This document shows, one piece after another, positions 5,387-50,081 of a DNA stretch of 64,000 nt (positions within the stretch are counted from its first letter, which is position 1; every line of letters begins with the position of its first letter). Position numbers and translations under genes: made by a program. The notes under the pieces were generated by a model. It did no database searches. It saw only the letters and a program-made list of their open reading frames with translations, and was not told where the DNA came from. The DNA comes from an uncultured Gammaproteobacteria bacterium (GTDB lineage Bacteria; Patescibacteriota; Patescibacteriia; Patescibacteriales; GWE2-39-37): contig CAYUCS010000001.1 in assembly GCA_964443495.1 (NCBI GenBank), positions 341,496 to 405,495 on the forward strand, read 5' to 3'.

Positions 5387-6082
5387 TTATAATGACACTT
5401 TGATGCCAGGGCCCATGGTCGAGCAGATGACCACGTTCTTGATGTAAGCGCCCTTGGCCTTAGCTGGCTTCAACTTCTTGATGATATCGACTACGGCCTG
5501 GAAATTCTCAGCCAACTTGGCAGTCTCGAAAGAGGTTTTGCCGATCGGCATGTGGATATTGGCGGTGTCGTCGTTCTTGAAGCTGATCTTGCCTTTCTTG
5601 ATTTCGGCGATCGCCTTGGCCGGGTCAGTGGTAACGGTCTCGTTCTTCGGTGAAGGCATCAGGCCGCGGGTACCAAGAATCTTGGCGATCGGGGCCAGGA
5701 AGCGCATCATTTCCGGAGTGGCGATGGCGACTTCGAAATCAGTCTTTTCAGTTTTCTTGATTTCTTCGATCAGCTCTTCGCCGCCGACAATGTCGGCGCC
5801 GGCTGCCTTGGCGTCAGCCTGCTTGTCAGCGCTGACGAAAGCGGCCACCTTGACGGTCTTGCCGATACCGTGAGGCAGGCTGACAGCGGAACGGATCTGC
5901 TGGTCGCCCTTCTTGGTGTCGATGCCGAGGCGCAAGTGGACCTCGATCGATGAATCGAACTTGGTGGCCGAGAATTTCTTAGCCATCTCGATGGCTTCAG
6001 CGATCGGATAGGCCTTGGCCTTGTCAAAATCGTAAGCCTTTTTCTTGGACTTTTTTACGGTCTTTTTGGTTGTCTCAGTCAT
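5387..6082 (-). CDS. rplA: 50S ribosomal protein L1
   Basis: YPIAEAIEMAKKF...IEVHLRLGID...QIRSAVSLPHGIGK pattern. Start uncertain: ATG at 6082 preferred, and the ORF also opens at a GTG at 6118. Confidence 0.9.
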   Translation of the reverse strand: MTETTKKTVKKSKKKAYDFDKAKAYPIAEAIEMAKKFSATKFDSSIEVHLRLGIDTKKGDQQIRSAVSLPHGIGKTVKVAAFVSADKQADAKAAGADIVGGEELIEEIKKTEKTDFEVAIATPEMMRFLAPIAKILGTRGLMPSPKNETVTTDPAKAIAEIKKGKISFKNDDTANIHMPIGKTSFETAKLAENFQAVVDIIKKLKPAKAKGAYIKNVVICSTMGPGIKVSL

Positions 6083-6133
6083 GCGTTTGTAGTGGTCTGC
6101 GTCCAATCGGACTCCCACGTTAATATTGAATGA

Positions 6134-6559
6134 TTAATCTTTGATTTCTACGCCCATCTGACGAGCGGTGCCGGCGATGGTCTTCATCGCGGCCTCGACG
6201 CTGGTGGTGTTCAGGTCCTGCAGCTTGATTTGCGCGATCTCGCGCAGCTGCGCGCTGGTCAGGGTGCCGACCTTCTCGATGTGGGCCTTCTTCGAACCGC
6301 TCTTGATGCCGGCGAACTTCTTGATCAATTCGCCTGCCGGAGGGGTTTTGGTGATGAAGGTGAAGGAGCGGTCGTCATAAACGGTGATCACTACCGGAGT
6401 GATTTCGCCCATGCGGTCCTTGGTTGCGTCGTTGAATTGCATGCAGAAGGCTTGGATCTGCACGCCGTGCTGGCCCAAAGCCGGACCGACTGGAGGTGCA
6501 GGATTGGCCTGGCCGGCAGGGATCTGCAATTTGATCTGTGCTAGTATTTTCTTAGCCAT
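6134..6559 (-). CDS. rplK: 50S ribosomal protein L11
   Basis: [33 protein letters not shown]... canonical L11 N-terminus. Confidence 0.95.
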
Positions 6560-6617
6560 AATTTTAATGATATTTACTTATATTCAATTGCTCCGAGAAG
6601 CGCAGAGCAACCAATGA

Positions 6618-7163
6618 TTAGATTTTCTTGATCTGCAAGAAGTCGAGTTCCAGCGGCGTTTCGCGGCCGAACATCGAGACCAATACTTTGACTTTGCCCT
6701 TGGCTTCATCGACTTGGGTGACCTTGCCTTCCAGGTTCTTGAACGGTCCATCGACGATCTTGACCGGGGAGTCGACCGTGACATCGATGGTGAATTTCGG
6801 TTCTTCAACGCCCATGCGTTTCTGCAGCTCTTTGACCTCCGTGTCGGAAATCGGGGTTGGGACGGTGCCGGTGCCGATGAAGCCGGTGACGTTCGGCGTG
6901 TTACGCACGACGTACCAGGAGTCATCGGTTACGATCATCTCGACCAAGACGTAGCCGGGGAAGATTTTCTCTTCCACGGTTTTACGTTTGCCGTTCTTGA
7001 TCTTGATCTTCTTCTCGATCGGAATCAGGATATTGAAAATTTTGTCCTCCATGTCCATCGACTCGGTTCTCTGACGCAAGCTCTGGGCGACGTTCTCTTC
7101 GTAGCCAGAGTAGGTGTGGATGACGTACCAGCGACGGCCTTGGTTTAAGACTTGTTTAGCCAT
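6618..7163 (-). CDS. nusG: Transcription termination/antitermination factor NusG
   Basis: RRWYVIHTYSGYE NGN domain and a C-terminal KOW (VKIVDGPFKNLEGKV); secE-nusG-rplK-rplA synteny. Confidence 0.9.
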   Translation of the reverse strand: MAKQVLNQGRRWYVIHTYSGYEENVAQSLRQRTESMDMEDKIFNILIPIEKKIKIKNGKRKTVEEKIFPGYVLVEMIVTDDSWYVVRNTPNVTGFIGTGTVPTPISDTEVKELQKRMGVEEPKFTIDVTVDSPVKIVDGPFKNLEGKVTQVDEAKGKVKVLVSMFGRETPLELDFLQIKKI

Positions 7164-7908: not shown

Positions 7909-10641
<2,733 letters not shown>

Positions 10642-12175: not shown

Positions 12176-12240
12176 ATTTTATCTTATTTTAGCAAAAATA
12201 TTTGGAATCAAAATGTTCGTTAGGAGCGAAGCGTTCGAGC

Positions 12241-12268
12241 TTGACTTTTTGGCATTTTTTAGTATAAT
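12241..12268 (+). promoter_or_regulatory. Sigma-70-type promoter for rplU
   Basis: TTGACT (12241-12246), 16-nt spacer, TATAAT (12263-12268). Confidence 0.55.
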
Positions 12269-12321
12269 AAAGCATACCGCCTGAAAGTGGCGCGTTTTTA
12301 TTTATATTTGCAATAATCCAT

Positions 12322-12636
12322 ATGGCAAAAATCGCAATCATCAAGACTGGCGGCAAACAGTACAAAGTTGAAGCTGGTAAATCGTTAAAGATCGAAAAGC
12401 TCCCATTGGAAGTCGGCGCAACCGTCAAATTCGAGACCTTGATGGTCGCTGAGGCTGATGGCGCGACCCTCGAACTCGGCAAGCCTTCATTGGGCGAACG
12501 CGTCGAGGCCAAAGTGCTTGAGCAGGACAAGGCCGACAAGGTTTCGGTCATCAAGTATAAGAACAAGACCCGCTACAAGAGGAACGTCGGCCATCGCCAG
12601 CCTTACACCAAGGTCGAGGTCACTTCTATCTCCTAA
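12322..12636 (+). CDS. rplU: 50S ribosomal protein L21
   Basis: MAKIAIIKTGGKQYKVEAG... canonical L21. Confidence 0.9.
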   Translation: MAKIAIIKTGGKQYKVEAGKSLKIEKLPLEVGATVKFETLMVAEADGATLELGKPSLGERVEAKVLEQDKADKVSVIKYKNKTRYKRNVGHRQPYTKVEVTSIS

Positions 12637-12653
12637 GATCAAAACGTACATAT

Positions 12654-12686
12654 AAAAAAACATCCGCGTGAAGCGGATGTTTTTTT
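12654..12686. terminator. Bidirectional terminator between rplU and recR
   Basis: CATCCGC-GTGAA-GCGGATG flanked by A7 and T7. Confidence 0.7.
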
Positions 12687-12692
12687 ATATGT

Positions 12693-13316
12693 CTAAGTGA
12701 GTTCGTTGCGATAGCGGAGAGCGTTGCCAAGCGTCATCTCATCGACATACTCGAGGTTGGCGCCCATCGGCAGGCCGCGAGCCAGCCGGGTGACTTTTAT
12801 AGGGAGAGGCTTCAGGATCTTGGCCAGATACATGCTGGTCGTTTCGCCTTCGATGGTCGGATTCAGAGCCAGGATGACCTCTTTGACCTGGCCAGTCTTC
12901 AGTTGGGCCAAAAGCGGTTCGAGATTGAGGCTGCTAGGGCCGATGCCTTCGAGCTGGTTCAGCTCGGCGCCGAGCACGTAAAAACGGCCCTGGAATTGCC
13001 GGCTCGATTCGATGGCCAGATAATCGCGCTGATCCGAGACGATGCACAGCTGACCGTTCTGCCGGCGCTGGTCAGAGCAAATCGCGCACGGACTGGCCTC
13101 GGCGATGGCAAAGCAGGAGCGGCACCTGGTGACGCCCTGCTGGAGCGAAGCGATCGCCTGGCTGAGCTCGGCAACATTCTTTTCCGGCTGAGCCAAGAGC
13201 GACAAGGCGAACCGTTCGGCCGTCTTCGGTCCGACGGTCGGCAGTTTGGCAAAAGCCTCTATTAATCTTTGTATAGCCTTAGGGTAGTGCATATGAATAA
13301 CAGGGTCAGAGAGCAT
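12693..13316 (-). CDS. recR: Recombination protein RecR
   Basis: LPTVGPKTAERFA helix-hairpin-helix, CRSC...CAIC zinc finger, Toprim region; alternative start ATG at 13292. Confidence 0.9.
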   Translation of the reverse strand: MLSDPVIHMHYPKAIQRLIEAFAKLPTVGPKTAERFALSLLAQPEKNVAELSQAIASLQQGVTRCRSCFAIAEASPCAICSDQRRQNGQLCIVSDQRDYLAIESSRQFQGRFYVLGAELNQLEGIGPSSLNLEPLLAQLKTGQVKEVILALNPTIEGETTSMYLAKILKPLPIKVTRLARGLPMGANLEYVDEMTLGNALRYRNELT

Positions 13317-27459: not shown

Positions 27460-27520
27460 CGACTCCACGCTGCGATAATAACTGACTCCGGAATAAGTCG
27501 GCCATGACGAATAAAACAAA

Positions 27521-27556
27521 AACCCTGCGGCAATGATGCGCAGGGTTGTTTTTTTA
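27521..27556. terminator. Bidirectional terminator at the left edge of the AT-rich island
   Basis: AACCCTGCG / CGCAGGGTT stem, then T9; A-rich upstream. Confidence 0.7.
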
Positions 27557-27574
27557 TTACCGAAAATCAAAAGT

Positions 27575-28048
27575 TTATTTTCTTTGGTCAACTAAACCCC
27601 CGATATACTTCGCTTTATAAATTTCATCTCCATCCGCGGACTTGATTATTTCCTCGCCAAAAAAATTATCGATTTCTCCTTCGTAAACATTGATATATTC
27701 AACGTCGTCAAGGTTGTATCGTTTTGGGCCACGAAATGGTTTATCCTCGGGAATCTGCGAAAGCGCACCCTGCAAGGTTTTGTAAACAGTCTGAACATCA
27801 GCAACGCCTTCAACCACCCAGCCATAATAAACCATCATGTAAACAGGTAAGCCTCGAAAAAATACAACCTCTCGTCCGCCATATGGTTCACCGCCAAAGT
27901 AATTATCATGATATTTCCAATCCCCATCTTCAAATATCAATGTTGTGGATTTGTCAGCTTCAACAATTTTTTTGGCAGAGTCACCAGCCGCATAAGTTGA
28001 TTTTTTAGCTTTAACCAGAAATTTACAAAGCTCGTTTTGGTCAAACAT
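27575..28048 (-). CDS. DUF5680-like protein of unknown function
   Basis: WKYHDNYFGGEPYGGREVVFFRGLPVYMMVYYGWV block as I remember it for DUF5680; AT-rich gene. Confidence 0.5.
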   Translation of the reverse strand: MFDQNELCKFLVKAKKSTYAAGDSAKKIVEADKSTTLIFEDGDWKYHDNYFGGEPYGGREVVFFRGLPVYMMVYYGWVVEGVADVQTVYKTLQGALSQIPEDKPFRGPKRYNLDDVEYINVYEGEIDNFFGEEIIKSADGDEIYKAKYIGGLVDQRK

Positions 28049-28310
28049 GATTTTAAATTACCACCTTAAAAATAAATTTTATTTCACTTAACGTTACTCA
28101 CATGCGAAGTTCGTTTGAAGCGTAGTGAAAACGAATTTGGGTGGAGGCTTTCGGAGAAAACCGTAACCGCATGTGAGTTGTTGTGCGATGTGAATATTTT
28201 TCTTTTGTTCGCCCTTAGACGAACGGCTCAAAAAAAGAATCTAATTTTGTTTTTCCGTCTTGGATTCAGGCCAGAGGGGTCAGGGGTGAATGGCCTGGAG
28301 CCAAGACTCC

Positions 28311-29561
28311 TTAAATTTTAAAAAAAATATCATTCAAATTATCCTCAGAAAAAGATGCATCATCTTTAATCCAAAACTTTATTGAATCTCGAAGAAATCC
28401 TTCTATCTTTATTATATCATCATTAGTTAATCCGTGTTTATTTCCATGCACTATTTTACTTCTGGTTGCATACATTTTTTTAATAAAATCAAATATTTCT
28501 TTTCTATGATCTTGATCTCCCAAAAGAAAAGCCACGCGCATTGATAATCTAAATGTTAATTCGTCATTTCCATTTGGTAAATATAGTGATTCAAGACCTA
28601 TCATATAGTCAATCAATTTATCTTCAATATTTCTTCGTTCCATGCCAAGACTCAATCTTCTCATGGCTATATTAAATCTAGTATCTTTTTCTTTCGTAAT
28701 GAACTGGTAAATATCAGAAAGTTCTTCAATTTCTGATTTTACAAGTACGCACTTTTCCCCTATAACTATATTTTCAAACCAGGAACCAATGGTTGTAATG
28801 CCGCCGTGAGGATGGAATGTTTCCATTTCTGAATTAATTCTATGATCCCTGTAAACTCCCGAAGATTTTAATATTCTAAGTGCGCTTATCACTCTATCAA
28901 AAATGTCACTTGATATGTTTAATTCATCCTCACCAGGAATAGCAAGTGGCTCTTCTGGCTCAGATGGCACTCCAGATTTAATAATTTTAGCGGTTTCATA
29001 CTTTCTTTGAATAATATATGATGATTTTGAAAAATTAGCATATCCTCCCTCAAAGTCATAATCAGGCTCTGATAAACTAACAACTTTAGTTTTTATTACA
29101 ATTCCGTCACTCAGATCAATCTCAGCCTCTTCATATTGAAAGTTGTACAGTGCGGTTGAGTCAATAAATTGCAGCTTTTCAGAATAAAATAACTCTTCAA
29201 AGCTCAAATATGCCTGATTGAATATGTCTAATGAAAATTCAGCATTTTTAAAATAAAAGCTTCTCAAGAAACTCAAAAGACACGATTCGGAATTTCCAGT
29301 GGTTGTAAAACCTCGGCAAGTTCCAACAAGATTGCCAAGTAAGCCGTTAATTTCTGGAGCAACTTTCATTATTTCCTCACATTCACTAAATTCTGGTATT
29401 TTTTTAATCTCATTATCAAAATTTATTAATAATCTAATTACATAATATTTTTCACTCATGCGTTGCGGATCTAACTTTAAATTCCGACCATAAAAAGAAA
29501 GTGCTGACTCAGTTAGCACTTGAAGGTTGATATACAATTCCTTGTTGTGTATTTGTTCCAT
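28311..29561 (-). CDS. HEPN-domain protein (C-terminal Rx4H RNase-type motif) with an unknown N-terminal region
   Basis: C-terminal helices RFNIAMRRLSLGMER, LIDYMIGLESLY, LTFRLSMRVAFLLG, KKMYATRSKIVHG (R367..H372, nt 28446-28463); very AT-rich. Confidence 0.6.
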   Translation of the reverse strand: MEQIHNKELYINLQVLTESALSFYGRNLKLDPQRMSEKYYVIRLLINFDNEIKKIPEFSECEEIMKVAPEINGLLGNLVGTCRGFTTTGNSESCLLSFLRSFYFKNAEFSLDIFNQAYLSFEELFYSEKLQFIDSTALYNFQYEEAEIDLSDGIVIKTKVVSLSEPDYDFEGGYANFSKSSYIIQRKYETAKIIKSGVPSEPEEPLAIPGEDELNISSDIFDRVISALRILKSSGVYRDHRINSEMETFHPHGGITTIGSWFENIVIGEKCVLVKSEIEELSDIYQFITKEKDTRFNIAMRRLSLGMERRNIEDKLIDYMIGLESLYLPNGNDELTFRLSMRVAFLLGDQDHRKEIFDFIKKMYATRSKIVHGNKHGLTNDDIIKIEGFLRDSIKFWIKDDASFSEDNLNDIFFKI

Positions 29562-29819
29562 ATTGAAAAATATTCAAATAAACTTTTTTTGCCTCTTTGT
29601 AGGCAAAAAAACACCTTATTACCCCTATATAAATAGATAAAAAAACAAAATTGAATTCTTTTTTGAGCCAGGGCGTAGCCCAAAAGGAAAACATGCATTT
29701 CGCACAACTCGTTATTATGCGAAATGTTTTCGCAAAACATGCTTAAATGTGTATGTTATACGAAATGTTTGATATAATTTTAGTGTTCGCTAACTTTAGA
29801 TTAATTATACCAATTGGCT

Positions 29820-30058
29820 ATGAAATTGGAAGAGTTATTGCGAAAAATTGAAAACGAGCTAAGGCTGAGAAATTTTAGCCGACGTACTATCAAAAGCTAT
29901 GTGGCTTGCCTCTCTGAGTATTTGAGGTGCGTCTAGGGGATAAATGCCGATAAGGGCGCTATGTACAAGAATCGTTAGGGCATGCTAATATCAGAACTGC
30001 TCAGATTTATACCAAAGTGACGAGTCCGATGCTGAAAAGCATCGCAAGCTCGTTGTGA
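29820..30058 (+). pseudogene. Tyrosine recombinase/integrase remnant (N- and C-terminal fragments, catalytic core deleted)
   Basis: 29820-29936 encodes MKLEELLRKIENELRLRNFSRRTIKSYVACLSEYLRCV*. 29975-30058 encodes LGHANIRTAQIYTKVTSPMLKSIASSL*. Confidence 0.7.
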
Positions 30059-40583: not shown

Positions 40584-42197
40584 ATGGCAACCCTATATCG
40601 TAAATACAGGCCGCAGAATTTTGCCGAGGTGGTGGGCCAGAACCATATCAAGGTTATCATGCAACACGAGCTGGTCGCCGACAAGCTCGCCCACGCCTAT
40701 CTTTTTTGCGGTCCGCGTGCCGTCGGCAAGACGACCTTGGCCCGGGTATTGGCCAAGGCGGCCAATTGCCTCAATCGCAAGCCGGAGAGCTATGAGCCGT
40801 GCGGCGTATGCGATGCCTGCGTCGATATCAGCGCCGGGCGTAGCTTCGACGTGATCGAGATCGATGCCGCTAGCCATACCGGCGTCGATAACGTCAGGGA
40901 AAACATCATCGCCAGCGCGCGCGTCGCTCCGTCCAAGCTGAAGCGCAAGGTCTTCATCATCGACGAGGTCCACATGCTTTCGACCGCCGCCTTCAACGCG
41001 CTTCTGAAAACTTTGGAAGAGCCGCCGGAATTCGTGCTGTTCGTGCTGTGCACGACCGAAGTCCACAAGGTTCCGGCCACCATCATCTCGCGCTGCCAGC
41101 GTTTCGATTTCAAGCGCATCAGCCTTAGCGAGGTCGTGCGCAAGCTCACCCATATCGTCAATCAGGAAGACATCAAAGTCGAGAAGAATATTTTGGAATC
41201 GGTCGCCCGCCATGCCGACGGCCACATGCGCGACGCGGAAAGCCTCTTGGGCCAGCTGGTCAATCTGGGCGGCAAGGAAATCTCGCAAGCCGATGCCGAC
41301 CTGGTCATTCCGAGGAGCGACTTGGGCGAGGTGGCCAGCCTGATCGAGATACTGTCCAACAAGGACGCGGCCGCCGGCATCCGCCTGGTCAACAAGCTCT
41401 TGGACGAGGGTGTCGATATCAAGGTATTCATGGGCGATGTCATCGAGATGCTGCGCAAGCTGATGCTCATGAAGATCAATCCGGCCTTGTCCGATTGGCT
41501 CGGACTCGAGCTCGGCGAAGCGCTCGAGATGCGCCTGAGCCAGATCAGCAAGAATCTCTCTCAGGAACAGCTTTTGGCTTTCTTGGAGCAGAGCATCAAG
41601 GCCTCAGGCGAGTTGAAATCGAGCTTCATCGTCCAGCTGCCCCTCGAGCTGATGATCGCCAGGATCTGTACGGCTCCTGCCCAGCCGATGATGGCGCCAG
41701 CGCCCGTGGCTGGCAATGCCGCGCCTGCCGCCAAACCGGCTGCCGCGGCAGCCGCCGTGACTGAGGGTTCGGCGCCCAAGTCTGAAGTTATCAGTTCGGG
41801 CAATTTGGACTATGAATTGATTTTGTCTAAGTGGAACGAGTTCCTGGTCAGGATCAAGACATACAACCATTCATTATCATTCATCCTGAAGGTCTGCCAG
41901 CCGAAGAGCCTGAATGGCAACGAGCTGTGCCTGGCGTTCAAATATAAATTCCACAAGGATCGCATCATGGATCCGACTATCAAGACCTTGTTGGAGCGGG
42001 TATTGAAAGAAACCTATTCGACCAGCCTGACGATCGAGGCGGTCATCGACGAGCAGCTCGAGGTGACTGCCGGTGAGAGCGCGCCGAAGGCCGAAACGCC
42101 CGTCGGCGCTCCGGCAGCCGAAGCCCCGGCCAAGCCGGAAAACGATAAGATGATCGACAACCTGCTCAAGGCCTTCGGCGGCAAGGTCGTCGGCTAA
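40584..42197 (+). CDS. dnaX: DNA polymerase III subunit gamma/tau
   Basis: YRKYRPQNFAEVVGQ, GPRAVGKTT, zinc module CGVCDAC, IIDEVHML, SRCQRF. Confidence 0.95.
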   Translation: MATLYRKYRPQNFAEVVGQNHIKVIMQHELVADKLAHAYLFCGPRAVGKTTLARVLAKAANCLNRKPESYEPCGVCDACVDISAGRSFDVIEIDAASHTGVDNVRENIIASARVAPSKLKRKVFIIDEVHMLSTAAFNALLKTLEEPPEFVLFVLCTTEVHKVPATIISRCQRFDFKRISLSEVVRKLTHIVNQEDIKVEKNILESVARHADGHMRDAESLLGQLVNLGGKEISQADADLVIPRSDLGEVASLIEILSNKDAAAGIRLVNKLLDEGVDIKVFMGDVIEMLRKLMLMKINPALSDWLGLELGEALEMRLSQISKNLSQEQLLAFLEQSIKASGELKSSFIVQLPLELMIARICTAPAQPMMAPAPVAGNAAPAAKPAAAAAAVTEGSAPKSEVISSGNLDYELILSKWNEFLVRIKTYNHSLSFILKVCQPKSLNGNELCLAFKYKFHKDRIMDPTIKTLLERVLKETYSTSLTIEAVIDEQLEVTAGESAPKAETPVGAPAAEAPAKPENDKMIDNLLKAFGGKVVG

Positions 42198-42235
42198 ATC
42201 TGCCTCTCAAGGGGAAGTGATAAATATTTTTGAAT

Positions 42236-43066
42236 ATGAATAATAAAAAAGGAGTTCAGAAGAATCGTAAACCGAAAGTCGCTTTGGTTTTGGGCGGCGG
42301 CGGCGCTCGCGGCATTGCCCACGTCGGCGTCTTGAGGACGCTCGAGGCCGCGGGCATCAAGATTGACGCCATCGTCGGCACTAGCATGGGCGCGCTGGTC
42401 GGCGCCTGCCATCTTCTGGGCCGGCTCGATCTGTTCGAATCCGAGGCTCGCAGCTTGAACAAGCGCAAGGCCATCAAGGAAATCCTTGATTTGACAGTCC
42501 CCAAATATTCGCTGCTTAAGGGCAAGAAGGCTCATCGCTATATCGAGAAATTGGTCGGGCGCAACAATTTCAACCATCTGAACGCTCCGTTGTGGGTGAT
42601 TGCTACCAACCTGGCCGACGGCCAGCCAGTCATCGTCAATAAAGGTAGCTTGGCCAACGCGATCCAAGCCAGCATCGCCGTGCCTGGCGTCTTTCCGCCG
42701 GTGAAGCTGGGTGATGACTATTTGGTCGATGGCGGCGTAGCCAGCCCGACCCCGATCGCCGAGGCTTTGGCCTGGGGCGCCGATATCGTCATTGCCGTGG
42801 ATTTGGTTTTGAAGCGGGGAAGCAAGCTGAGGGAAAAGCCGGACTTGTTGTTTACCTTGATGCAGTCCTATGAAACCATCCGTAACAAGTCGGTTTGGGA
42901 CGGGCAGACCGAGCATCAACGGGTCATCACCATCAGGCCTGACCTGAATGGCAACGGATTGGTCTCAAGCTTCAAGTTTTTTAAGGTAGATGATTTCATT
43001 ACTGCCGGAACCAAGGCGGCAATCGGGGCATTACCGGAAATCAGGGAAGCGATTGACAGTTTCTAG
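42236..43066 (+). CDS. Patatin-like phospholipase
   Basis: LVLGGGGARG oxyanion motif, GTSMG nucleophile elbow, DGG near the C-terminus; ATG at 42236 (the ORF opens at a TTG at 42230). Confidence 0.85.
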   Translation: MNNKKGVQKNRKPKVALVLGGGGARGIAHVGVLRTLEAAGIKIDAIVGTSMGALVGACHLLGRLDLFESEARSLNKRKAIKEILDLTVPKYSLLKGKKAHRYIEKLVGRNNFNHLNAPLWVIATNLADGQPVIVNKGSLANAIQASIAVPGVFPPVKLGDDYLVDGGVASPTPIAEALAWGADIVIAVDLVLKRGSKLREKPDLLFTLMQSYETIRNKSVWDGQTEHQRVITIRPDLNGNGLVSSFKFFKVDDFITAGTKAAIGALPEIREAIDSF

Positions 43067-43148
43067 ATATTGGGTTACAATAGCAAACGAGGCTTCAAGG
43101 CCTTATTTGTATTAAGGCTGGTCTATTTGAGGCCGCAAAATATAATAT

Positions 43149-43219
43149 TCGGGGATCGTCTAATGGTAGGACAGCGGGTTCTGGTCCCGTCAATTGGGGT
43201 TCGAGTCCCTATCCCCGAG
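43149..43219 (+). tRNA. tRNA-Gln(CUG): tRNA-Gln (anticodon CUG)
   Basis: TCGGGGA/TCCCCGA acceptor (U1-A72), GCGGG-TTCTGGT-CCCGT anticodon arm, TGGGG-TTCGAGT-CCCTA T arm. Confidence 0.85.
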
Positions 43220-43227
43220 CAAATAAA
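43203..43227 (+). repeat. Direct repeat copy 1 (tRNA-Gln 3' end plus 8 nt)
   Basis: GAGTCCCTATCCCCGAGCAAATAAA, identical to 43319-43343. Confidence 0.9.
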
Positions 43228-43299
43228 ATCAGTCCCTTTTGGGGCTGATTTTATTTTGTTTGTGGGATAGGGCCGAAAGAAAGTCAATGCGTGAGGCGT

Positions 43300-43343
43300 G
43301 GGGCTTCCGCCCCGGTGAGAGTCCCTATCCCCGAGCAAATAAA
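43300..43343 (+). repeat. GGGGCTTCCGCCCC hairpin plus direct repeat copy 2 (tRNA-Gln 3'-end fragment, att-like)
   Basis: Hairpin at 43300-43313, then GGTGA, then an exact 25-nt copy of the tRNA-Gln 3' end at 43319-43343. Confidence 0.85.
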
Positions 43344-43385
43344 TAAAGAGCACCTCCTCAAGAGGCGCTCTTTATTTATTTTTTT

Positions 43386-43425
43386 AGGAATGGGACTCGA
43401 ACCCGCCTACCGGCAGGCAGGCGGG
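43386..43425 (-). other. Third tRNA 3'-half-like fragment (different tRNA) behind a GC hairpin, inverted orientation
   Basis: Minus strand reads CCCGCCT-loop-AGGCGGG then TTCGAGTCCCATTCCT; no matching 5' acceptor strand upstream. Confidence 0.6.
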
Positions 43426-43501
43426 CAGCAGTGAAAAAAATTTGCACAGCACACTTTATTTATTAAAAAGAAACCCGCGCTTGGCTGGCGCGGGGCTGAA
43501 T

Positions 43502-43948
43502 TTATGGGGCGATAGAGAAAAGTTCGGCTGGCGCGTCGGCAATAACGCATTGGGCGATACCCGACCAGCCACCCCTGGCTTCGTATTCACCAATCCAGAT
43601 CTCACCTTTGCGCTCGAAAGAAAATCGAATTTCGTTAGACTTGGCTATCGTTTCATAGACAGACGAATCCAGTGCTTTCGAATACATTTTTTTGAAATAT
43701 AGCTCATCTGGCAAAAGCCTGATGTTGGACAAGATCGACAAGCCAAGGCGGTCAATCATGTATCCAGGCACCTCAAGCTCATCAAGTTGCTCGGGCGGTT
43801 CCGTTGAAATTATACCGGAAAACATGATTCTACAGTAATCTTTCTTTATGAGCATCGCGGGTGTGGAAGCAATGCCCAGGCTGTGGCGTTGATCGTCGGT
43901 GAAATCGGTTGATTTTTGAAAAAAGAACCCTTGGATGATTTTTTTCAT
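43502..43948 (-). CDS. Hypothetical protein (148 aa)
   Basis: GGAGGTG Shine-Dalgarno upstream of the ATG; no domain recognised. Confidence 0.5.
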   Translation of the reverse strand: MKKIIQGFFFQKSTDFTDDQRHSLGIASTPAMLIKKDYCRIMFSGIISTEPPEQLDELEVPGYMIDRLGLSILSNIRLLPDELYFKKMYSKALDSSVYETIAKSNEIRFSFERKGEIWIGEYEARGGWSGIAQCVIADAPAELFSIAP

Positions 43949-44138
43949 CTTTGCACCTCCGTTGTTGTATTCAAGATTTATTCAGATGTTAGTCAATTTT
44001 TATATTTATGTCAATTTACTTAACTAATTTATTGTGCTGGCCGAGGAGCGTGAATATGATTGACTGCGGGAGTAAAATATGTTTGAATATGTAATCTGCT
44101 CATTTCATTAAAAATAAACCAACTCAGGAGGTGGAAGG

Positions 44139-45329
44139 ATGAAAATAGATACTTCGAGACGGCTTGAACAGGCTTTGGCGCTTTGGGAGAACTTGAATTA
44201 CTACTATCGTGTCGTGGCCGAAAGGTGCATCGCGGTCAAGCAGAGCCATCGTTTCCCGATGGAAGAGATGTACAAGAACAGCGATAAGCTGAGAAAAGTC
44301 TTGCTCGGAAGCTATTCCTCGAATCCGTCTGATCGTTTCGACTTTTCGGATTTTAGCGGAAGCACGGAAAAGAGCATGCACCTTTTCGGGAATCTCGGAC
44401 TTTTGCCGCTGTATCTGCATCACTGGACGGTCTCATCGAGGCGCGTCTATCATCTGTCACAGAATCTCCAAACCCTGCTTCGATGGACATCGCTTGATAA
44501 TGTGCGTTGGAGCGATATCGAGTGGCCGTTCAACTCCTTTGTCGTCTCTCTTGAGACGCCCATCGTTGACACCAATGGCGATAAATTCGATTGCATGCTG
44601 TTCACAAAAATTGATGCGATCGACGAAGGAGTTGTCAGGATGTCGGACATCTCGATCACTCTTTTTTCTTCGAGATTAGAGGGTCTTGAAACTTTCACCA
44701 GTGTCCAGCGGCAGAATCTGCAGCGGGCGTATAACGAGTGCAAGGCAAAAAAGGTCAAGAAGATGATGAGCGTCATTGACAGTCTTCAGCCCGGGCCGCA
44801 TGCGACTCGACCGGTAAGGATGTATTACTTCGACGCCATGAAAAATCGCGATATGCTCGTATCCGAAAGTGCCGAAGTGCTTAATGAGCGGCTCGTAAAA
44901 GAGCACCAGCTTGGCAGCTATGACGTTTTCGATGCTGCCCTTAACATCGTTGCCGGTCTGGCCCTTTATCTTGGCTCGCAGGATGCGGACAGCGAAGAGC
45001 GGACCGAGTGGCGCCGTGCCTCTGTTCCTGGCGAACGGAATCATCGGCACATCAACAACACTGCCCAGGTCTGCGAAGTCTTTTGCACGAAAAGCCTTAC
45101 CATCAGGGATCAGGAGTTTATCTCGGCAATCAATCGCCAGTTGGAGATAAGCGGACGCATGGGCATGCCGGTGCATTGGCGGTGCGGCTATTGGAGACGG
45201 CCGCCAGGAATGGGTTGCATTCCGATGGCCAAAAGATCGGTCCGCGTCAGCCCGAGCCTGGTCAACTCCGATCTCATTGATGAGTTTACGGACAAGGGCT
45301 TGCCGGTCGGCTCATGCCACAGGATTTGA
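44139..45329 (+). CDS. Hypothetical protein (396 aa), first gene of an orphan operon
   Basis: CAGGAGGTGGAAGG Shine-Dalgarno; basic C-terminal block PVHWRCGYWRRPPGMG; no domain recognised. Confidence 0.6.
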   Translation: MKIDTSRRLEQALALWENLNYYYRVVAERCIAVKQSHRFPMEEMYKNSDKLRKVLLGSYSSNPSDRFDFSDFSGSTEKSMHLFGNLGLLPLYLHHWTVSSRRVYHLSQNLQTLLRWTSLDNVRWSDIEWPFNSFVVSLETPIVDTNGDKFDCMLFTKIDAIDEGVVRMSDISITLFSSRLEGLETFTSVQRQNLQRAYNECKAKKVKKMMSVIDSLQPGPHATRPVRMYYFDAMKNRDMLVSESAEVLNERLVKEHQLGSYDVFDAALNIVAGLALYLGSQDADSEERTEWRRASVPGERNHRHINNTAQVCEVFCTKSLTIRDQEFISAINRQLEISGRMGMPVHWRCGYWRRPPGMGCIPMAKRSVRVSPSLVNSDLIDEFTDKGLPVGSCHRI

Positions 45330-45370
45330 GCGTGCTCCACGCAAGCCAACGCACAAAGGAGGTAGTTAAG

Positions 45371-45637
45371 ATGGAACAGCCATTCAATTTGACGTCGTCT
45401 GAATTCAGCCCCGCTGGCAAGGTGGTTGGCCACCTGTATTATCACGGCATCCTGAAATGCTTGCTGCACGATGATGAATATTCCGGTTCGCCTAGCGAGG
45501 GCGGTTCGCATTTCCTGCGCCTACACGTCAGCCGAGCGGACCTGGAAGCTTTTCTCGACCTCATCGAGGAATATTATGCGGCCGCTGGCGAACGTTTTGC
45601 CGGCGGCGTAGCTGCCTTGCGCCAGAAAGTCGCGTGA
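45371..45637 (+). CDS. Hypothetical protein (88 aa)
   Basis: AAAGGAGGTAG Shine-Dalgarno 7 nt before the ATG at 45371. Confidence 0.55.
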   Translation: MEQPFNLTSSEFSPAGKVVGHLYYHGILKCLLHDDEYSGSPSEGGSHFLRLHVSRADLEAFLDLIEEYYAAAGERFAGGVAALRQKVA

Positions 45638-45700
45638 TATCCGTTCACGTCAAATAAACGCCCCCCGATTATTGAATCGGGGGCAAGGAGGAGGCAGGAC

Positions 45701-46102
45701 ATGCAACAGTCGAAGAATTTTGGCGAAGCGAAAGAGCGAGGATTGGAAGGCTACGGAACGATGCCCGGGCACGTGCTCGTCTTGAAACACGGCCTGATGG
45801 GCGCTTTTCCGGCATTGATACGCGAAGGTCTTGGGCTGTTCATCTGCACTGACCTCGAAGTCCTCAAGAAGGTCTGGGAGCTCTTGCCGAAGCGGCAAGC
45901 TAAGCTGCTCGAGCTTGAGCTGTGCGCGAACTTGGCCGAGAAGGTCGCCTTCAACCCCCAGCTTGGCGACGAGGCCCAGCCGATCAGAATCCTTGACGAA
46001 GAAGACTTCCGTATCATATCCTCGCGGCCCGACGCATTCATGTGGTCGCCGGGGCTACTCTCGCTGGACGGCGAGGGCGAAGTTCTTTCACCATTTGTCT
46101 GA
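45701..46102 (+). CDS. Hypothetical protein (133 aa)
   Basis: CAAGGAGGAGG Shine-Dalgarno; followed by a terminator. Confidence 0.55.
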   Translation: MQQSKNFGEAKERGLEGYGTMPGHVLVLKHGLMGAFPALIREGLGLFICTDLEVLKKVWELLPKRQAKLLELELCANLAEKVAFNPQLGDEAQPIRILDEEDFRIISSRPDAFMWSPGLLSLDGEGEVLSPFV

Positions 46103-46120
46103 AATCAACCCACTGACGGA

Positions 46121-46148
46121 AAACCCGCTTCGGTGGGTTTTTCTTTTT
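46121..46148 (+). terminator. Terminator ending the 44.1-46.1 kb operon
   Basis: AAACCCGC-TTCG-GTGGGTTT followed by a T-rich run. Confidence 0.65.
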
Positions 46149-46224
46149 GCGCGACCGCAAACTTAAAACGTTCGGCCATAAAAAAACTCCCGGACTAAGT
46201 CCGGGAGTTTTATATGAGTAGAGG

Positions 46225-46422
46225 TTAAGCGAGCTTAACGTTCACTGCGTTCATTCCTTTCGGCGATTCCTCTGATTCGAAAGTGACCTGATCACCTTCG
46301 TTGATCTGGTCAAAGCTGACGCCGACCAGGGAATTGCTGTGGAAGAACAGGTCCTTAGCTTCGCCATCGATGGCGATGAAGCCGAAACCTTTGTCAGTCT
46401 TCTTTTTGATAACTCCGTTCAT
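46225..46422 (-). CDS. cspA: Cold-shock protein (CspA family)
   Basis: KGFGFI (RNP1) and LFFHSN (RNP2-like) motifs; 65 aa. Confidence 0.9.
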   Translation of the reverse strand: MNGVIKKKTDKGFGFIAIDGEAKDLFFHSNSLVGVSFDQINEGDQVTFESEESPKGMNAVNVKLA

Positions 46423-46514
46423 GATGTAATATCATTACTTTGTAAAATGGTAAATCAAACATTTTTAAAGCTCGACGAATTCTCTTTTTCAAAACATTTT
46501 TTTCACTTAGATAT

Positions 46515-46543
46515 ATTGTAGCATAAAATTAAAAAATTGTCAA
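46515..46543 (-). promoter_or_regulatory. Sigma-70-type promoter for the csp gene with a ~90-nt leader
   Basis: Minus strand: TTGACA (46543-46538), 17-nt spacer, TACAAT (46520-46515). Confidence 0.55.
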
Positions 46544-46560
46544 GAATGCCGTTTGCCGGG

Positions 46561-46589
46561 TTGATTTTATGCGCTTAACACGGTAATAT
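46561..46589 (+). promoter_or_regulatory. Promoter for the 40-aa basic ORF
   Basis: TTGATT, 17-nt spacer, TAATAT. Confidence 0.45.
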
Positions 46590-46614
46590 TAGTATTATTC
46601 ATAAATATCCAAAT

Positions 46615-46737
46615 ATGGCTAAAAGAAGCACTGGTGTTGGTAGCAAAAAGACCGGCAGCCCGCACAAGACCGCCAAGCGCCTGGAAACGAAGCGTGTCAG
46701 GCTTGAAGAATTGGCAGCAAAAAGGAAGAAGCGCTAA
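46615..46737 (+). CDS. Highly basic 40-aa microprotein (not in the ORF track)
   Basis: MAKRSTGVGSKKTGSPHKTAKRLETKRVRLEELAAKRKKR*; has its own promoter and a downstream hairpin plus T-run (~46749-46778). Confidence 0.4.
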   Translation: MAKRSTGVGSKKTGSPHKTAKRLETKRVRLEELAAKRKKR

Positions 46738-46794
46738 TAGATACACTGCGAATAAAGACACACCCAGAAGGTGCGTCTTTTTTTGTCTTGCTTA

Positions 46795-47190
46795 TTACAT
46801 CTCGGCATCTGGGGATGGCTCCATCAGTCCGAAACGGTTGCCCTCGGTATCTTTGGCGCCGGCAAACCAGCCGACCCCGGGAATCTCCGACCGTTCCTTG
46901 GTGATGGTGCCGCCGGCTTTTTTGACGGCTTCGACCGCCTTGTCCAGATCCTTGACTTCGACGGTGCAGTCATAGAGATAGAATCTGTCCGAACCGTCCT
47001 TTGGCCGTTCGTATAGGCCGCCGTTGATGCCTGGCTCGCCTTCTTTGCCAGTGATGAGACCCCAGTAGTCCATGCCGCTCTCTTCCTTTTTCATCCATTG
47101 CACGATTTCCCACCCCAGGGTTTCCTGATAGAATTTCTTGGCGCGCTCGATGTCATCGGCTTGGATTTCGAAATGAATTACTCTGTTCAT
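46795..47190 (-). CDS. VOC/glyoxalase-bleomycin-resistance family protein
   Basis: VIHFEIQADDIERAKKFYQETLGW...GWFAGAKDTEGNRFGLM. Confidence 0.75.
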   Translation of the reverse strand: MNRVIHFEIQADDIERAKKFYQETLGWEIVQWMKKEESGMDYWGLITGKEGEPGINGGLYERPKDGSDRFYLYDCTVEVKDLDKAVEAVKKAGGTITKERSEIPGVGWFAGAKDTEGNRFGLMEPSPDAEM

Positions 47191-47206
47191 ATGGTTGATT
47201 TAATTA

Positions 47207-47782
47207 TTAGGTAGCTTGTTTTTCAAGCTTGACGGCCAGGCTTATGACCGTGTTGATGACCAGCTCGGCGTTCTTCGCGTGGAGCTCCTCGTTCAGCAAT
47301 TGGCCGTTCTCGTCGTAGGCCGCCCAGATAAAGGGAATAAGGACTTGGTCACGGACGCTGTACATCTTGAGTTCGGCCGCGACCAGGCGTTGCTGTTCGA
47401 CCGAGCGCGCACCGCCGGCCGCACCGCCATAGCCGACGTAGCCGATGGCTTTGCCGTTCCACTCCTTGTAACCGTAATCATAGGCGTTCTTGAGCGCGGC
47501 CGGGTAACCGTGGTTGTATTCCGGCGTAACAATGATGAATCCGTCGCCGTCGTCGATTTTCTCGAGCCAGCGGTTGACCGCCGGGTCGGCATGGGGTCCT
47601 TGCCGTGTCCCGGGCAGCTCGGCATCAGCGAATATCGGTAGCGGATAGTCGCGGAGATCGAGGAGTTCAAAATCGGCCCGGTCGTTCTTGCTGGCGATCG
47701 CCATGAACCACTCGGCCACCTTGGCGCCTGCTCGCCCTTCGCGGATGCTGGCTAGGATGACTTTTATTTTCGGTTTGTCCAT
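47207..47782 (-). CDS. NAD(P)H-dependent FMN reductase family protein
   Basis: KIKVILASIREGRAGAKVAEW...FIIVTPEYNHGYPAALKNAYDY. Confidence 0.75.
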   Translation of the reverse strand: MDKPKIKVILASIREGRAGAKVAEWFMAIASKNDRADFELLDLRDYPLPIFADAELPGTRQGPHADPAVNRWLEKIDDGDGFIIVTPEYNHGYPAALKNAYDYGYKEWNGKAIGYVGYGGAAGGARSVEQQRLVAAELKMYSVRDQVLIPFIWAAYDENGQLLNEELHAKNAELVINTVISLAVKLEKQAT

Positions 47783-47941
47783 ATGATTATCTTACTGCCC
47801 ATGTAATTTACCTCCCCGGAATTAAATAAATGTTAAGACGCCTCGGTTGACTAAAAAGCTGCTGATTGGTAAGCTTTCGTGATAATTCCTCGGCTTCGGA
47901 CCGAGAATCCGGCTCATTAATACAACGCAAAGGAGGAAGGT

Positions 47942-48538
47942 ATGGCAACGGAAGGTTGGAAATCGGAAATATTCATCAGTGCCGACATCGAGGCGGACGG
48001 CAGGGTGCCGGGCATCAACTCCATGCTCTCGCTGGGCTCCGTGGCCCTGCGGGTCAATGAGTCCGGGTATGAGGAGATAGCTACTTTCGAGGCCAATCTG
48101 CTCGAACTGCCCGGAGCCGTGCGCGACCCCGAGGTAATGGCCTGGTGGCAGAAATTCCCCGAGGCTTGGGACAGGTGCCGGACTGGCGCTCGGCCGGCAG
48201 CAGATGTCATGCATGATTATCTTGCCTGGATCAAAGGCTTGCCAGACCGCGCCGGCCTGGTCGCCTATCCGGGGGCTTTCGATTTCATGTTCATCTATTG
48301 GTATCTCTACGCCCTGACCGGACAGCGGCCGTTCAATGCCTCGGCGCTGTGCGTCAAGTCGTATGCCATGGGCATGTTGGGTGAGGCTTCGTGGCTTGAC
48401 TTCGAGCGCAAACGGATACCGGAAAAGTATCTTTCATCCCACCCGCACGACCACACGCCGCTTAACGACTCGATCGAACAAGGACAGATCTTCGCCGCCC
48501 TCTATCGGGACAACGTCATTGGCCGAACAAGGCGCTAA
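47942..48538 (+). CDS. DEDDh 3'-5' exonuclease (Rv2179c-like exoribonuclease family)
   Basis: SADIEADG (ExoI), AYPGAFDFMF (ExoII), HTPLNDSIEQG (ExoIII H-x4-D); AAAGGAGGAAGG Shine-Dalgarno. Confidence 0.65.
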   Translation: MATEGWKSEIFISADIEADGRVPGINSMLSLGSVALRVNESGYEEIATFEANLLELPGAVRDPEVMAWWQKFPEAWDRCRTGARPAADVMHDYLAWIKGLPDRAGLVAYPGAFDFMFIYWYLYALTGQRPFNASALCVKSYAMGMLGEASWLDFERKRIPEKYLSSHPHDHTPLNDSIEQGQIFAALYRDNVIGRTRR

Positions 48539-48606
48539 GGCGTCGTTCGTGCTTTGCTCCCGCCGCATCGGTTTCCGGTGCGGCTTTTTTCATCCGGAAG
48601 GCAGGC

Positions 48607-48635
48607 ATTGATATATGTCTAAAAATGTGTTATCT
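48607..48635 (+). promoter_or_regulatory. Promoter for the 48.7-50.7 kb operon
   Basis: TTGATA, 17-nt spacer ending in TGT, TATCTT. Confidence 0.4.
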
Positions 48636-48678
48636 TAGTAAGAATTTTTTTGCTCATTAAACAATCCGGGAGGGTGAC

Positions 48679-49602
48679 ATGGAAAAGGCATTGCAGGTCT
48701 TCAGAACGGCTTTGGGGTTGAAGCATAGGAACCTGATAAGACGCTGGCGCTGGCTGGAACGGAATTATCATCCGGAACATGACGAGGAAATCAGGTCGAT
48801 CCTGGAGGAATTAAAAGCGGTATCGCTTACTTTGAGGAATGAGGTCGGGTGGTCGTACATCGACGACCTGTCGACGTTCATGAACCTGCAAATCAGGCAC
48901 AAGATGGACGACCTCAAGGCTCGAGTCATGAATCTCGTTGATCCGCCTGGCCAGGCCGCAGTTTCGAAACTGGTGTCGGAAATAAGGCAATTGATCGCCG
49001 CGTCCAGCGAAGAGCTCAAGCAGTATAAAGGCGGCTCCAACTGCCTCGACGCCAAGGACTATGAGATGAAAATTTCATTGCTTGAGTCGATTTCAAAGAA
49101 GCCGCTGACTAGCGGCGAAGTCCGTGCCGTAGTCGACGATTATGAATCTTCGCAGGGCTACATGATCCATAACTTCGAAGAAGAAGGGGGCGATCCGATC
49201 GTCGAATGCATCCCGTTGCCTAAAGAGCCTGACGAGGATGACATCTTAGGCCAGCACGGCATAGTAATGGGGTTCCGTGTCGGCTATATGGCGATGGGCA
49301 GCTGGATATTTCCGATCGTCGAAACCGAGGATGACCGTATCGGCATACCGATCGAGAAATTGCTTGCCGAATTCGGCGGCTGTCCCAGGGGACGCGTAAA
49401 TGACATGGAAAAAAGGCAGAATGATGGTTACGATATGTACCGCAAGCGGTGCAGCTGTTGCCTGAGGCACGTCTGCCCGGGCGGAGATTTGTATTTCGCC
49501 TGGAACCTGAAAGCGTTGGCGGCGAAATTTTTACGGGTCAAAAACCGATCGCAAGAGTCAATCAGGGCCTTGCTGGATTTCAGCGGCTATCAAGCTTCCT
49601 AA
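48679..49602 (+). CDS. Hypothetical protein (307 aa) with a weak J-domain-like N-terminus and a C-terminal Cys cluster
   Basis: GGGAGGGTG Shine-Dalgarno; LIRRWRWLERNYHPEHDEE (HPE where a J domain has HPD); RKRCSCCLRHVCPGG. Confidence 0.55.
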   Translation: MEKALQVFRTALGLKHRNLIRRWRWLERNYHPEHDEEIRSILEELKAVSLTLRNEVGWSYIDDLSTFMNLQIRHKMDDLKARVMNLVDPPGQAAVSKLVSEIRQLIAASSEELKQYKGGSNCLDAKDYEMKISLLESISKKPLTSGEVRAVVDDYESSQGYMIHNFEEEGGDPIVECIPLPKEPDEDDILGQHGIVMGFRVGYMAMGSWIFPIVETEDDRIGIPIEKLLAEFGGCPRGRVNDMEKRQNDGYDMYRKRCSCCLRHVCPGGDLYFAWNLKALAAKFLRVKNRSQESIRALLDFSGYQAS

Positions 49603-49613
49603 GGAGGGAAAAA

Positions 49614-50081
49614 GTGATCGATATCAAGGGGAATATCAAGGGGGTCGAGGGCGACCCGTCGAATTTCAGGTTGCGCCGTTTCAGGTTCCGCGGAGTCGAG
49701 TGCGAGTGCATGGAGTCATTACTGCAGGCTTTTAAGTTCGAAAACCGGGAAGTGCAGCAGTTCATCTGCCAGCTTCGACCGCGCATCGCCAAGCTTATCG
49801 GGACAGAGCGAAACCAGGTCTGGCAAGCCTCCTTGACCTTGTGGTGGGACGACCAGCCTTATCATCGGTTATCGCCGGAGTATCAGGAACTGTTGGACGA
49901 GGCTTATGAAGCACTGTCCCTGAACCAGGACTTCGTCAACGCTTTGCTCGCGACCGGCGATGAAATGCTGACCCACAGCATCGGCGAAAGGGATCCGACC
50001 AGGACCGTCTTGACCGAGGAGGAGTTCTGCTCGCGCCTAATGAAAATCAGGCGCATCAAACAAGGGAGGGAAGCATGCTGA
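49614..50081 (+). CDS. NADAR (YbiA/DUF1768)-like protein, tentative
   Basis: AAGGAGGG Shine-Dalgarno plus GTG start; PSNF...FRGVECECMESLLQAFKF...ALLATGDEMLTHS mirrors the NADAR blocks LSNF / SxEHxxQAxKF / LLxTGxxxLxE. Confidence 0.45.
   Translation: MIDIKGNIKGVEGDPSNFRLRRFRFRGVECECMESLLQAFKFENREVQQFICQLRPRIAKLIGTERNQVWQASLTLWWDDQPYHRLSPEYQELLDEAYEALSLNQDFVNALLATGDEMLTHSIGERDPTRTVLTEEEFCSRLMKIRRIKQGREAC

Follow-up and report, generated by a model that had tools for sequence, protein, structure and literature searches.

A distant AcrVA2/FinQ-family gene in a variable chromosomal slot beside tRNA-Gln of a Falkowbacteria-like Patescibacteria genome

Does a compact block of four small genes beside a tRNA form one dedicated system, or do its members have separate histories? 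The question is raised by positions 43502-46148 of a 64,000-nt stretch of contig CAYUCS010000001.1 (hereafter the window), where a 148-amino-acid (aa) gene on the minus strand (43502-43948) diverges from three plus-strand genes with products of 396 aa (44139-45329), 88 aa (45371-45637) and 133 aa (45701-46102). A preliminary description of this DNA took them for an orphan block organised as a unit, a candidate accessory system in which no product held a motif that could be placed. Our analysis resolves the region into a mosaic of one gene with a placeable family, that of the 396-aa protein, one backbone gene, that of the 133-aa protein, and two lineage-restricted genes. On balance, and with some reserve, we favour the view that the 396-aa protein is a stand-alone silencer of the AcrVA2/FinQ family, encoded in a chromosomal slot after tRNA-Gln of a Falkowbacteria-like Patescibacteria (candidate phyla radiation, CPR) genome.

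Membership of the 396-aa protein in the AcrVA2/FinQ family is well supported, though the relationship is distant. A precomputed match to PF26125 ('AcrVA2-like') is on record for an identical protein (P0001), and the same family is recorded at E-values of 1e-5 or below for the 95%-identical orthologue from L011-L013, a metagenomic relative with the same four-gene layout, and for two further relatives (P0003 and P0004); P0002 has none on record. Because the local copy of Pfam is apparently without this model, the assignment was tested independently in five ways. A profile search over 1.84 billion representatives (clusters at 50% identity) returned 760 relatives at E ≤ 1e-3, 384 of them at E ≤ 1e-30, most being 380-400 aa long. 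An AlphaFold2 model built from a 130-sequence alignment of the family (predicted local distance difference test score, pLDDT, 86.6; predicted template modelling score, pTM, 0.85) replaced a poor five-sequence model (pLDDT 63.8) that gave only weak matches to AcrVA2. The model comprises a helical N-terminal domain (helices 7-99), an alpha/beta middle domain with a mixed sheet and helices (102-334) and a C-terminal domain of four strands (346-348, 350-353, 368-370 and 373-375), an order identical to the three-domain layout described for AcrVA2 (PMC10846135). Among 350,542 PDB chains searched with Foldseek, the top three matches are all AcrVA2 (7ci2_A, E 1.7e-4; 7ci1_A, 4.2e-4; 7ci1_B, 2.8e-3) and the next lies above E 1, which leaves this anti-CRISPR protein of a Moraxella bovoculi prophage (7CI1/7CI2; PF26125) as the sole significant structural match. 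Structure prediction and fold comparison, which were among the checks proposed beforehand, place this protein, and neither the label of orphan nor the want of a recognisable motif can be kept for it.

Phage and plasmid proteins lead to the same family. Among viral models (BFVD), seven phage proteins match in Foldseek at E < 1e-3; the proteins of Erwinia phage Yoloswag (gp241) and Dickeya phage JA13 (JA13_060) belong to these and, together with Shewanella phage Y11 ORF43, match at E 1e-4 to 3e-4. By tblastn the Yoloswag and JA13 proteins are sequence homologues of a Shewanella-phage AcrVA2 protein, itself 43% identical to crystallised AcrVA2. These phage homologues differ from the 396-aa protein in their length (320-358 aa) and viral origin, are uncharacterised, and are undetectable by sequence search from it. 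The profile of the 130-sequence family was compared by hhalign with a reference alignment of 11 sequences, namely AcrVA2, FinQ and nine plasmid or phage homologues, and the two match (probability 95.9%, E 5.3e-9) over 148 columns, extending to 281 columns at mact 0.05.

The basic block PVHWRCGYWRRPPGMG (landmark PVHWRCGYWRRPPG), previously singled out as the only landmark of the protein, is present as described and is far from unplaceable, being the functional HxR motif and signature of the AcrVA2/FinQ family. Both a profile-PDB search and hhalign align it with AcrVA2 PHIRRGHWHGYW (H286, R288, H291). The full HxRxG(H/Y)WRR signature, codons H346-W-R348-C-G-Y351-W-R-R-P-P-G357, occupies 45174-45209 on the plus strand. 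H346 corresponds to AcrVA2 H286 and R348 to R288, and they are kept in 126 and 123 of the 130 family members, respectively. At position 351, the counterpart of H291, 97 members have histidine, 17 tyrosine and 9 phenylalanine, whereas H291 is invariant in the 11-sequence reference alignment. In AcrVA2 the substitutions H286A, R288A and H291A abolish or diminish activity, and HxR mutants lose the downregulation of Cas12a mRNA while binding is kept (Marino et al., bioRxiv 10.1101/2022.11.29.518452). W96, present in 130/130 members, aligns with AcrVA2 W79 in the low-stringency hhalign extension only.

Is the gene part of the stable chromosome? The neighbouring tRNA-Gln(CTG), at 43149-43220 on the plus strand (ARAGORN; Rfam tRNA, 55.6 bits), forms the left edge of a hotspot. 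Its 3' end has left scars at 43314-43404, made up of a direct copy (43314-43343) and an inverted T-arm fragment (43387-43404), so that three tRNA-Gln 3'-end fragments, native, direct and inverted, fall within 43198-43404. The last 25 nt of the tRNA recur exactly at 43319-43343, where none would be expected by chance. The hotspot location proposed from these scars is therefore borne out, with a slot directly after tRNA-Gln. The slot is defined by comparison with the Falkowbacteria genome GCA_013336275.1 (L007), which is syntenic at both flanks: DnaX, patatin and tRNA-Gln precede the slot, and the 133-aa gene, CSD(-), glyoxalase(-) and FMN reductase(-) follow it. Blastn homology between the two is limited to window positions 42009-43451 and 45722-47794 and is interrupted at 43452-45721, a variable slot of 49.5% GC that carries the 148-, 396- and 88-aa genes. 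Because in syntenic L007 the slot holds other genes, one of 103 aa and a 200-aa Phage_30_3 (T4 gp30.3-like) gene, these three are accessory cargo. The accessory character claimed for the whole block accordingly stands for them and fails for the 133-aa gene, which is syntenic backbone. The tRNA-Gln has the same flanks in L007, and the scars, kept there up to about 43445, would predate the split of the two lineages, since they are conserved in both. Homology between the window and L011 starts at 43333, inside the second tRNA-end copy, left of which L011 has unrelated sequence with a 202-aa open reading frame (ORF) without a Pfam match; this break suggests recombination at the second tRNA-end repeat.

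Relatives of the 396-aa gene occur as single genes, with no conserved partners. The search for their loci used a five-sequence alignment, and its patterns, drawn from Patescibacteria sequences, are narrow, so that the counts are biased. Among one-genome-per-species contigs it gave 19 full-length matches, one labelled Gammaproteobacteria and 18 Patescibacteria (Falkow-, Sacchari-, Taylor-, Staskawicz-, Magasanik-, Uhr-, Kerfeld- and Moranii-bacteria, Minisyncoccia and others). One named metagenomic representative belongs to Liptonbacteria, more distant matches come from Acidobacteriota, Terriglobia, Bacteroidota and Cohaesibacter, and an IMG/VR viral contig carries one distant relative. Searching 72,556 plasmids by tblastn gave no match. 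No homologue of the 148-, 88- or 133-aa gene was found near about 25 other relatives, almost all from Patescibacteria, and across these loci no neighbour recurs. Adjacency to a tRNA was considered as a general property of the family and rejected, its frequency (3/18 loci) being about that of chance. Our literature search found no paper linking AcrVA2 with Patescibacteria.

What might such a protein do? AcrVA2 binds the nascent N-terminal Cas12a polypeptide, leading to translation-dependent loss of Cas12a mRNA; FinQ lowers the mRNA of F-plasmid transfer genes; and most AcrVA2 relatives occur without Cas12a, their targets being open (Marino et al., bioRxiv 10.1101/2022.11.29.518452). By analogy, the 396-aa protein would most likely bind a specific polypeptide of one target protein, probably while this emerges from the ribosome, and its C-terminal HxRxG(H/Y)WRR module would then trigger loss of the target mRNA, so that production of the target is shut off. 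The target is probably not Cas12a. Most likely the gene acts in a conflict with some mobile element, phage or other, or is what remains of such a conflict after arriving on mobile DNA. A conflict role is our preference, since a close syntenic relative lacks the gene and the slot carries phage-type cargo elsewhere.

Comparison with the two named family members shows how far the analogy reaches. With AcrVA2 the 396-aa protein shares the order of its three domains, the C-terminal motif (HxRxGHW in AcrVA2), its encoding as a single-gene unit of about 1 kb and, tentatively, a conserved tryptophan (W79/W96). It differs in length (396 aa against 322 aa), its N-terminal helical region being longer and its C-terminus extended, and in setting, the window gene being chromosomal in Patescibacteria with no prophage context. 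FinQ, the fertility inhibition protein of IncI-type plasmids of E. coli and Salmonella, is joined to the 396-aa protein through its alignment with AcrVA2 in the reference set that matches the family profile. It provides a precedent for a family member aimed at a rival mobile element and not at CRISPR. Unlike the 396-aa protein, which has no plasmid match, FinQ is plasmid-borne next to trb/exc conjugation genes, and the hosts are unrelated.

Several observations weigh against the reading of the 396-aa protein as a stand-alone silencer of this family engaged in conflict. As regards family membership, the local Pfam scan gave no match for any member, that copy probably lacking PF26125; direct sequence and profile searches of the PDB with the 396-aa protein were not significant (E 1.4); and template modelling (TM) scores to AcrVA2 of 0.35-0.44, with about 12% identity, mark a distant relationship. 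As regards mechanism, AcrVA2 H291 is replaced by Tyr351, a change at a functionally important site, so that one of the three C-terminal functional residues is substituted in the 396-aa protein. AcrVA2 D89 aligns with Ser107, although in the low-stringency hhalign extension only. So far the mechanism itself has been demonstrated in one member only, AcrVA2, and in preprint form, how the RNA is degraded being left open (Marino et al., bioRxiv 10.1101/2022.11.29.518452). Conservation of the N-terminal half across the 130 members is high, which fits a shared partner better than diversifying targets. As regards a mobile origin, the slot contains no integrase, phage or plasmid genes, and no att-like direct repeat bracketing the cargo was found. 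Finally, several relatives in Patescibacteria have housekeeping genes as neighbours, one in L023 being flanked by EF-Tu and EF-G, and a host function of the gene is possible in view of these contexts.

That last point leads to the first rival explanation, that the Patescibacteria branch has been domesticated as a host regulator acting on a protein of the cell itself and is no conflict gene. Relatives that are chromosomal, single and often set amid housekeeping genes (EF-Tu/EF-G, YchF, LeuRS, SerA-like), together with an N-terminal half strongly conserved across the 130 members, speak for it. Its distribution is less easily accommodated. The gene is patchily present, being missing at this site from a genome whose flanks have about 80% nucleotide identity, and homologues at 41-45% identity occupy different loci in other Falkowbacteria. 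A Minisyncoccia metagenome-assembled genome (L018) has two AcrVA2-like paralogues in one locus (5986-7152 and 9005-10171), 1.8 kb apart and flanking a 392-aa D-isomer dehydrogenase-like gene, and the species genomes scanned yielded only the 19 full-length matches, with narrow search patterns. We regard domestication as unlikely, though it is the rival that survives best. The single-gene chromosomal context, the strong purifying selection, the patchy presence and the well-conserved N-terminal half could go with conflict as well as with domestication.

A second rival sees in the 396-aa protein what a prophage or integrated element at tRNA-Gln left behind, a true anti-CRISPR aimed at a Cas12-type effector. 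Homology to AcrVA2, a site adjoining a tRNA-Gln with repeated integration scars, and distant relatives on phages and one IMG/VR contig all speak for it. Set against these are the occurrence of most family members without Cas12a (Marino et al.), the lack of any CRISPR array or repeat array within the 64-kb window, part of a contig of about 772 kb, and of phage or integrase genes in the slot, and strong purifying selection at a chromosomal site. The N-terminal and middle regions, which in AcrVA2 bind Cas12a peptides, are moreover barely alignable. An anti-CRISPR function of this kind seems improbable to us.

The remaining rivals make the 396-aa protein one part of something larger, and their fate depends on its neighbours. 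The 133-aa gene precedes CSD(-)/glyoxalase(-)/FMN_red(-) in L007 and L008 without the other three genes, and is likewise without them in L009 and L010. Its family occurs in eight close loci without the 396-, 148- and 88-aa genes and in 27 further metagenome loci, where the other three are absent save in the close relative. Because it is syntenic in L007 without the slot cargo, the 133-aa gene, from a small Patescibacteria-type family, is conserved backbone and not cargo, and merely shares strand and terminator with the two genes before it. Direct sequence searches of the PDB drew no significant match for the 133-aa protein, nor for the small profiles. A 31%-identical homologue is encoded at 5001-5405 of L077 (IMGVR_UViG_3300017987_000003, 194.9 kb), a contig classed as viral by IMG/VR, which belongs to a huge phage or else is a Patescibacteria fragment put in the wrong class.

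The 148- and 88-aa genes are, by their distribution in sequence databases, lineage-restricted passengers. Scans of PHROGs, PADLOC, NCBIfam and the local Pfam copy returned nothing for any of the four proteins (in PADLOC, no family at E ≤ 1). The 148-aa protein also has no match in the PDB, and its homologues are limited to a protein with 64% identity and the orthologues of L011-L013 with 96%. The 88-aa protein is acidic (isoelectric point, pI, 5.4) and has neither a Pfam family nor a PDB match; its orthologues (91% identical) are found in L011-L013 only, always with the 396-aa gene. Two candidate relatives of the 88-aa protein were discarded. One, on a viral contig, proved to be a chance pattern, EGGSHFLR, inside an unrelated 341-aa protein, and the other, the 79-aa gene that in L009 lies ahead of the 133-aa homologue, was tested and is unrelated.

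All four ORFs are real genes under purifying selection, because ratios of nonsynonymous to synonymous substitution (dN/dS; Nei-Gojobori) against the orthologues in L013 are 0.084 for the 148-aa gene, 0.056 for the 396-aa gene, 0.087 for the 88-aa gene and 0.237 for the 133-aa gene, with dS of 0.24-0.54. A lack of coding signal, with ratios near 1, had been entertained beforehand; the range found is 0.06-0.24. Protein identity to L011-L013 falls to 80% for the 133-aa protein, against 95% for the 396-aa protein. Recent transfer was considered as the cause of this step and rejected, dS being alike in the two genes (0.54 vs 0.52), and the 133-aa protein simply evolves faster.

The signals around the four genes lie where they had been described. 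Shine-Dalgarno (SD) strings CAGGAGGTGG, AAAGGAGGTAG and CAAGGAGGAGG stand 4-8 nt ahead of the ATGs of the 396-, 88- and 133-aa genes, and GGAGGTG precedes the start of the 148-aa gene. Public annotation starts the second plus-strand gene at ATG 45314, inside the end of the 396-aa gene, giving 107 aa; the start at 45371 has an SD site and agrees with 87-aa calls in relatives. An intrinsic-terminator-like hairpin with a T-run at 46118-46143 on the plus strand (-21.8 kcal/mol, z = -3.9; 0/200 shuffles fold equally well) closes the plus-strand transcription unit, in which the 396-, 88- and 133-aa genes are presumably co-transcribed. The minus-strand 148-aa gene has its own terminator at 43494-43474 (fold z = -2.95). 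Between the 88- and 133-aa genes a further hairpin (45662-45683) is not significant (z = -1.2) and is not conserved in L011, and it was discarded as a candidate terminator inside the unit or edge of a cassette. The divergent control region of 190 nt (43949-44138) is AT-rich as claimed, with 33.7% GC against 52.5% for the window, and is 94% identical to L011, above the flanking coding DNA, with two conserved blocks. The GTCAATTT pair lies within it at 43992-43999 and 44010-44017. This 8-mer is mildly unusual, with 6 copies in the window against 3.25 expected, and both copies are 100% conserved in L011. They overlap TTGAC -35-like boxes serving the minus-strand 148-aa gene, for which a promoter-like site (TTGACA-17-TAACAT) is found at 44014-43986 on the minus strand.

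With the neighbours described, a two-gene cassette can be weighed in which the 396-aa protein would trigger RNA decay and the small acidic 88-aa protein would neutralise it, in the manner of a toxin and its antidote. A gap of 41 nt separates the two genes, purifying selection acts on both and they always occur together in the four closest loci, the 396-aa product being basic (pI 8.3) and the 88-aa product acidic. Exactly this pair is missing from a 1.9-kb contig (JGI 3300075153, 1,915 bp) in which 148- and 133-aa homologues are adjacent and divergent with no 396- or 88-aa gene between them. The wider family does not follow this pattern: in 22 other loci, what lies downstream of the 396-aa relative is neither a homologue of the 88-aa gene nor a small co-oriented ORF of consistent size, and in many a convergent gene follows directly. 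AcrVA2 and FinQ, moreover, act as single proteins, and no toxin-antitoxin or defence model matches the pair. We think such a cassette has little chance of being the right explanation. The weakest rival, the original proposal that the four genes cooperate as one dedicated defence or anti-defence system, has in its favour the tight layout with strong SD sites and a single plus-strand terminator, the highly conserved divergent control region and the identical layout in L011-L013, yet it is largely refuted by the phyletic patterns and appears very improbable, since the four genes co-occur only in relatives at 80-96% protein identity, the 133-aa gene is without the other three in L007/8, L009/10 and 26 metagenome loci, the 148- and 133-aa genes adjoin each other without the other two in the JGI contig, the 396-aa relatives are never found with the other three genes, being solo in about 25 loci, and none of the four proteins has a PADLOC match.

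Further features of note lie elsewhere in the window. A second variable slot at 47795-49448 includes plus-strand ORFs of 198 aa (47942-48538) and 307 aa (48679-49602) that are absent from L007, where FMN reductase is followed directly by a gp30.3-like gene. The 198-aa protein matches the PADLOC 'Exonuclease' effector model PDLC00753 (E 9.4e-22), and nothing significant matches the 307-aa protein. The window has one copy of the T4 gp30.3-like gene (PF08010, NADAR-related; E 2.5e-49), at 49449-50081 on the plus strand; L007 has two (9292-9894 and 12204-12872), one of which fills its tRNA-Gln slot in place of the 148-, 396- and 88-aa genes. An islet at 27500-30000 has 33% GC, against about 52% for the window, and resembles cargo of foreign origin, possibly of a defence type. 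It encodes on the minus strand a 416-aa protein (28311-29561) whose sole match, to Apea-like HEPN (PF18739, E 0.05), is below threshold and which has an RxxxxH-type 'RSKIVH' close to the C-terminus, adjoined by a DUF5680 protein at 27575-28048 (minus strand; E 1e-24).

For annotation, what stood as an operon of hypothetical proteins becomes a gene that can be placed, a gene of the backbone and two that are true unknowns. To our knowledge, AcrVA2 is the only prokaryotic protein so far reported to destroy a specific mRNA on recognising its nascent product. The locus shows that a large, well-conserved branch of its family lives as single chromosomal genes in Patescibacteria. For this branch we provide a deep alignment, a confident model and the HxRxG(H/Y)WRR module pinned on it, and its members are defined natural variants with which to ask what else a mechanism of the AcrVA2 type targets. 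More speculatively, the clade of proteins of roughly 390 aa (at least 760 clusters, with named members nearly all from Patescibacteria) might as a whole be a host-chromosomal AcrVA2/FinQ branch, working in these ultrasmall episymbionts as a single-protein, nascent-chain-directed silencer against a conserved phage or mobile-element protein, or against a protein of the bacterium they live on. We consider this doubtful, but were it true, the conserved N-terminal half would mark a common target or a ribosome-docking surface, and polypeptide-triggered mRNA destruction would be a defence or regulatory principle reaching beyond anti-CRISPR.

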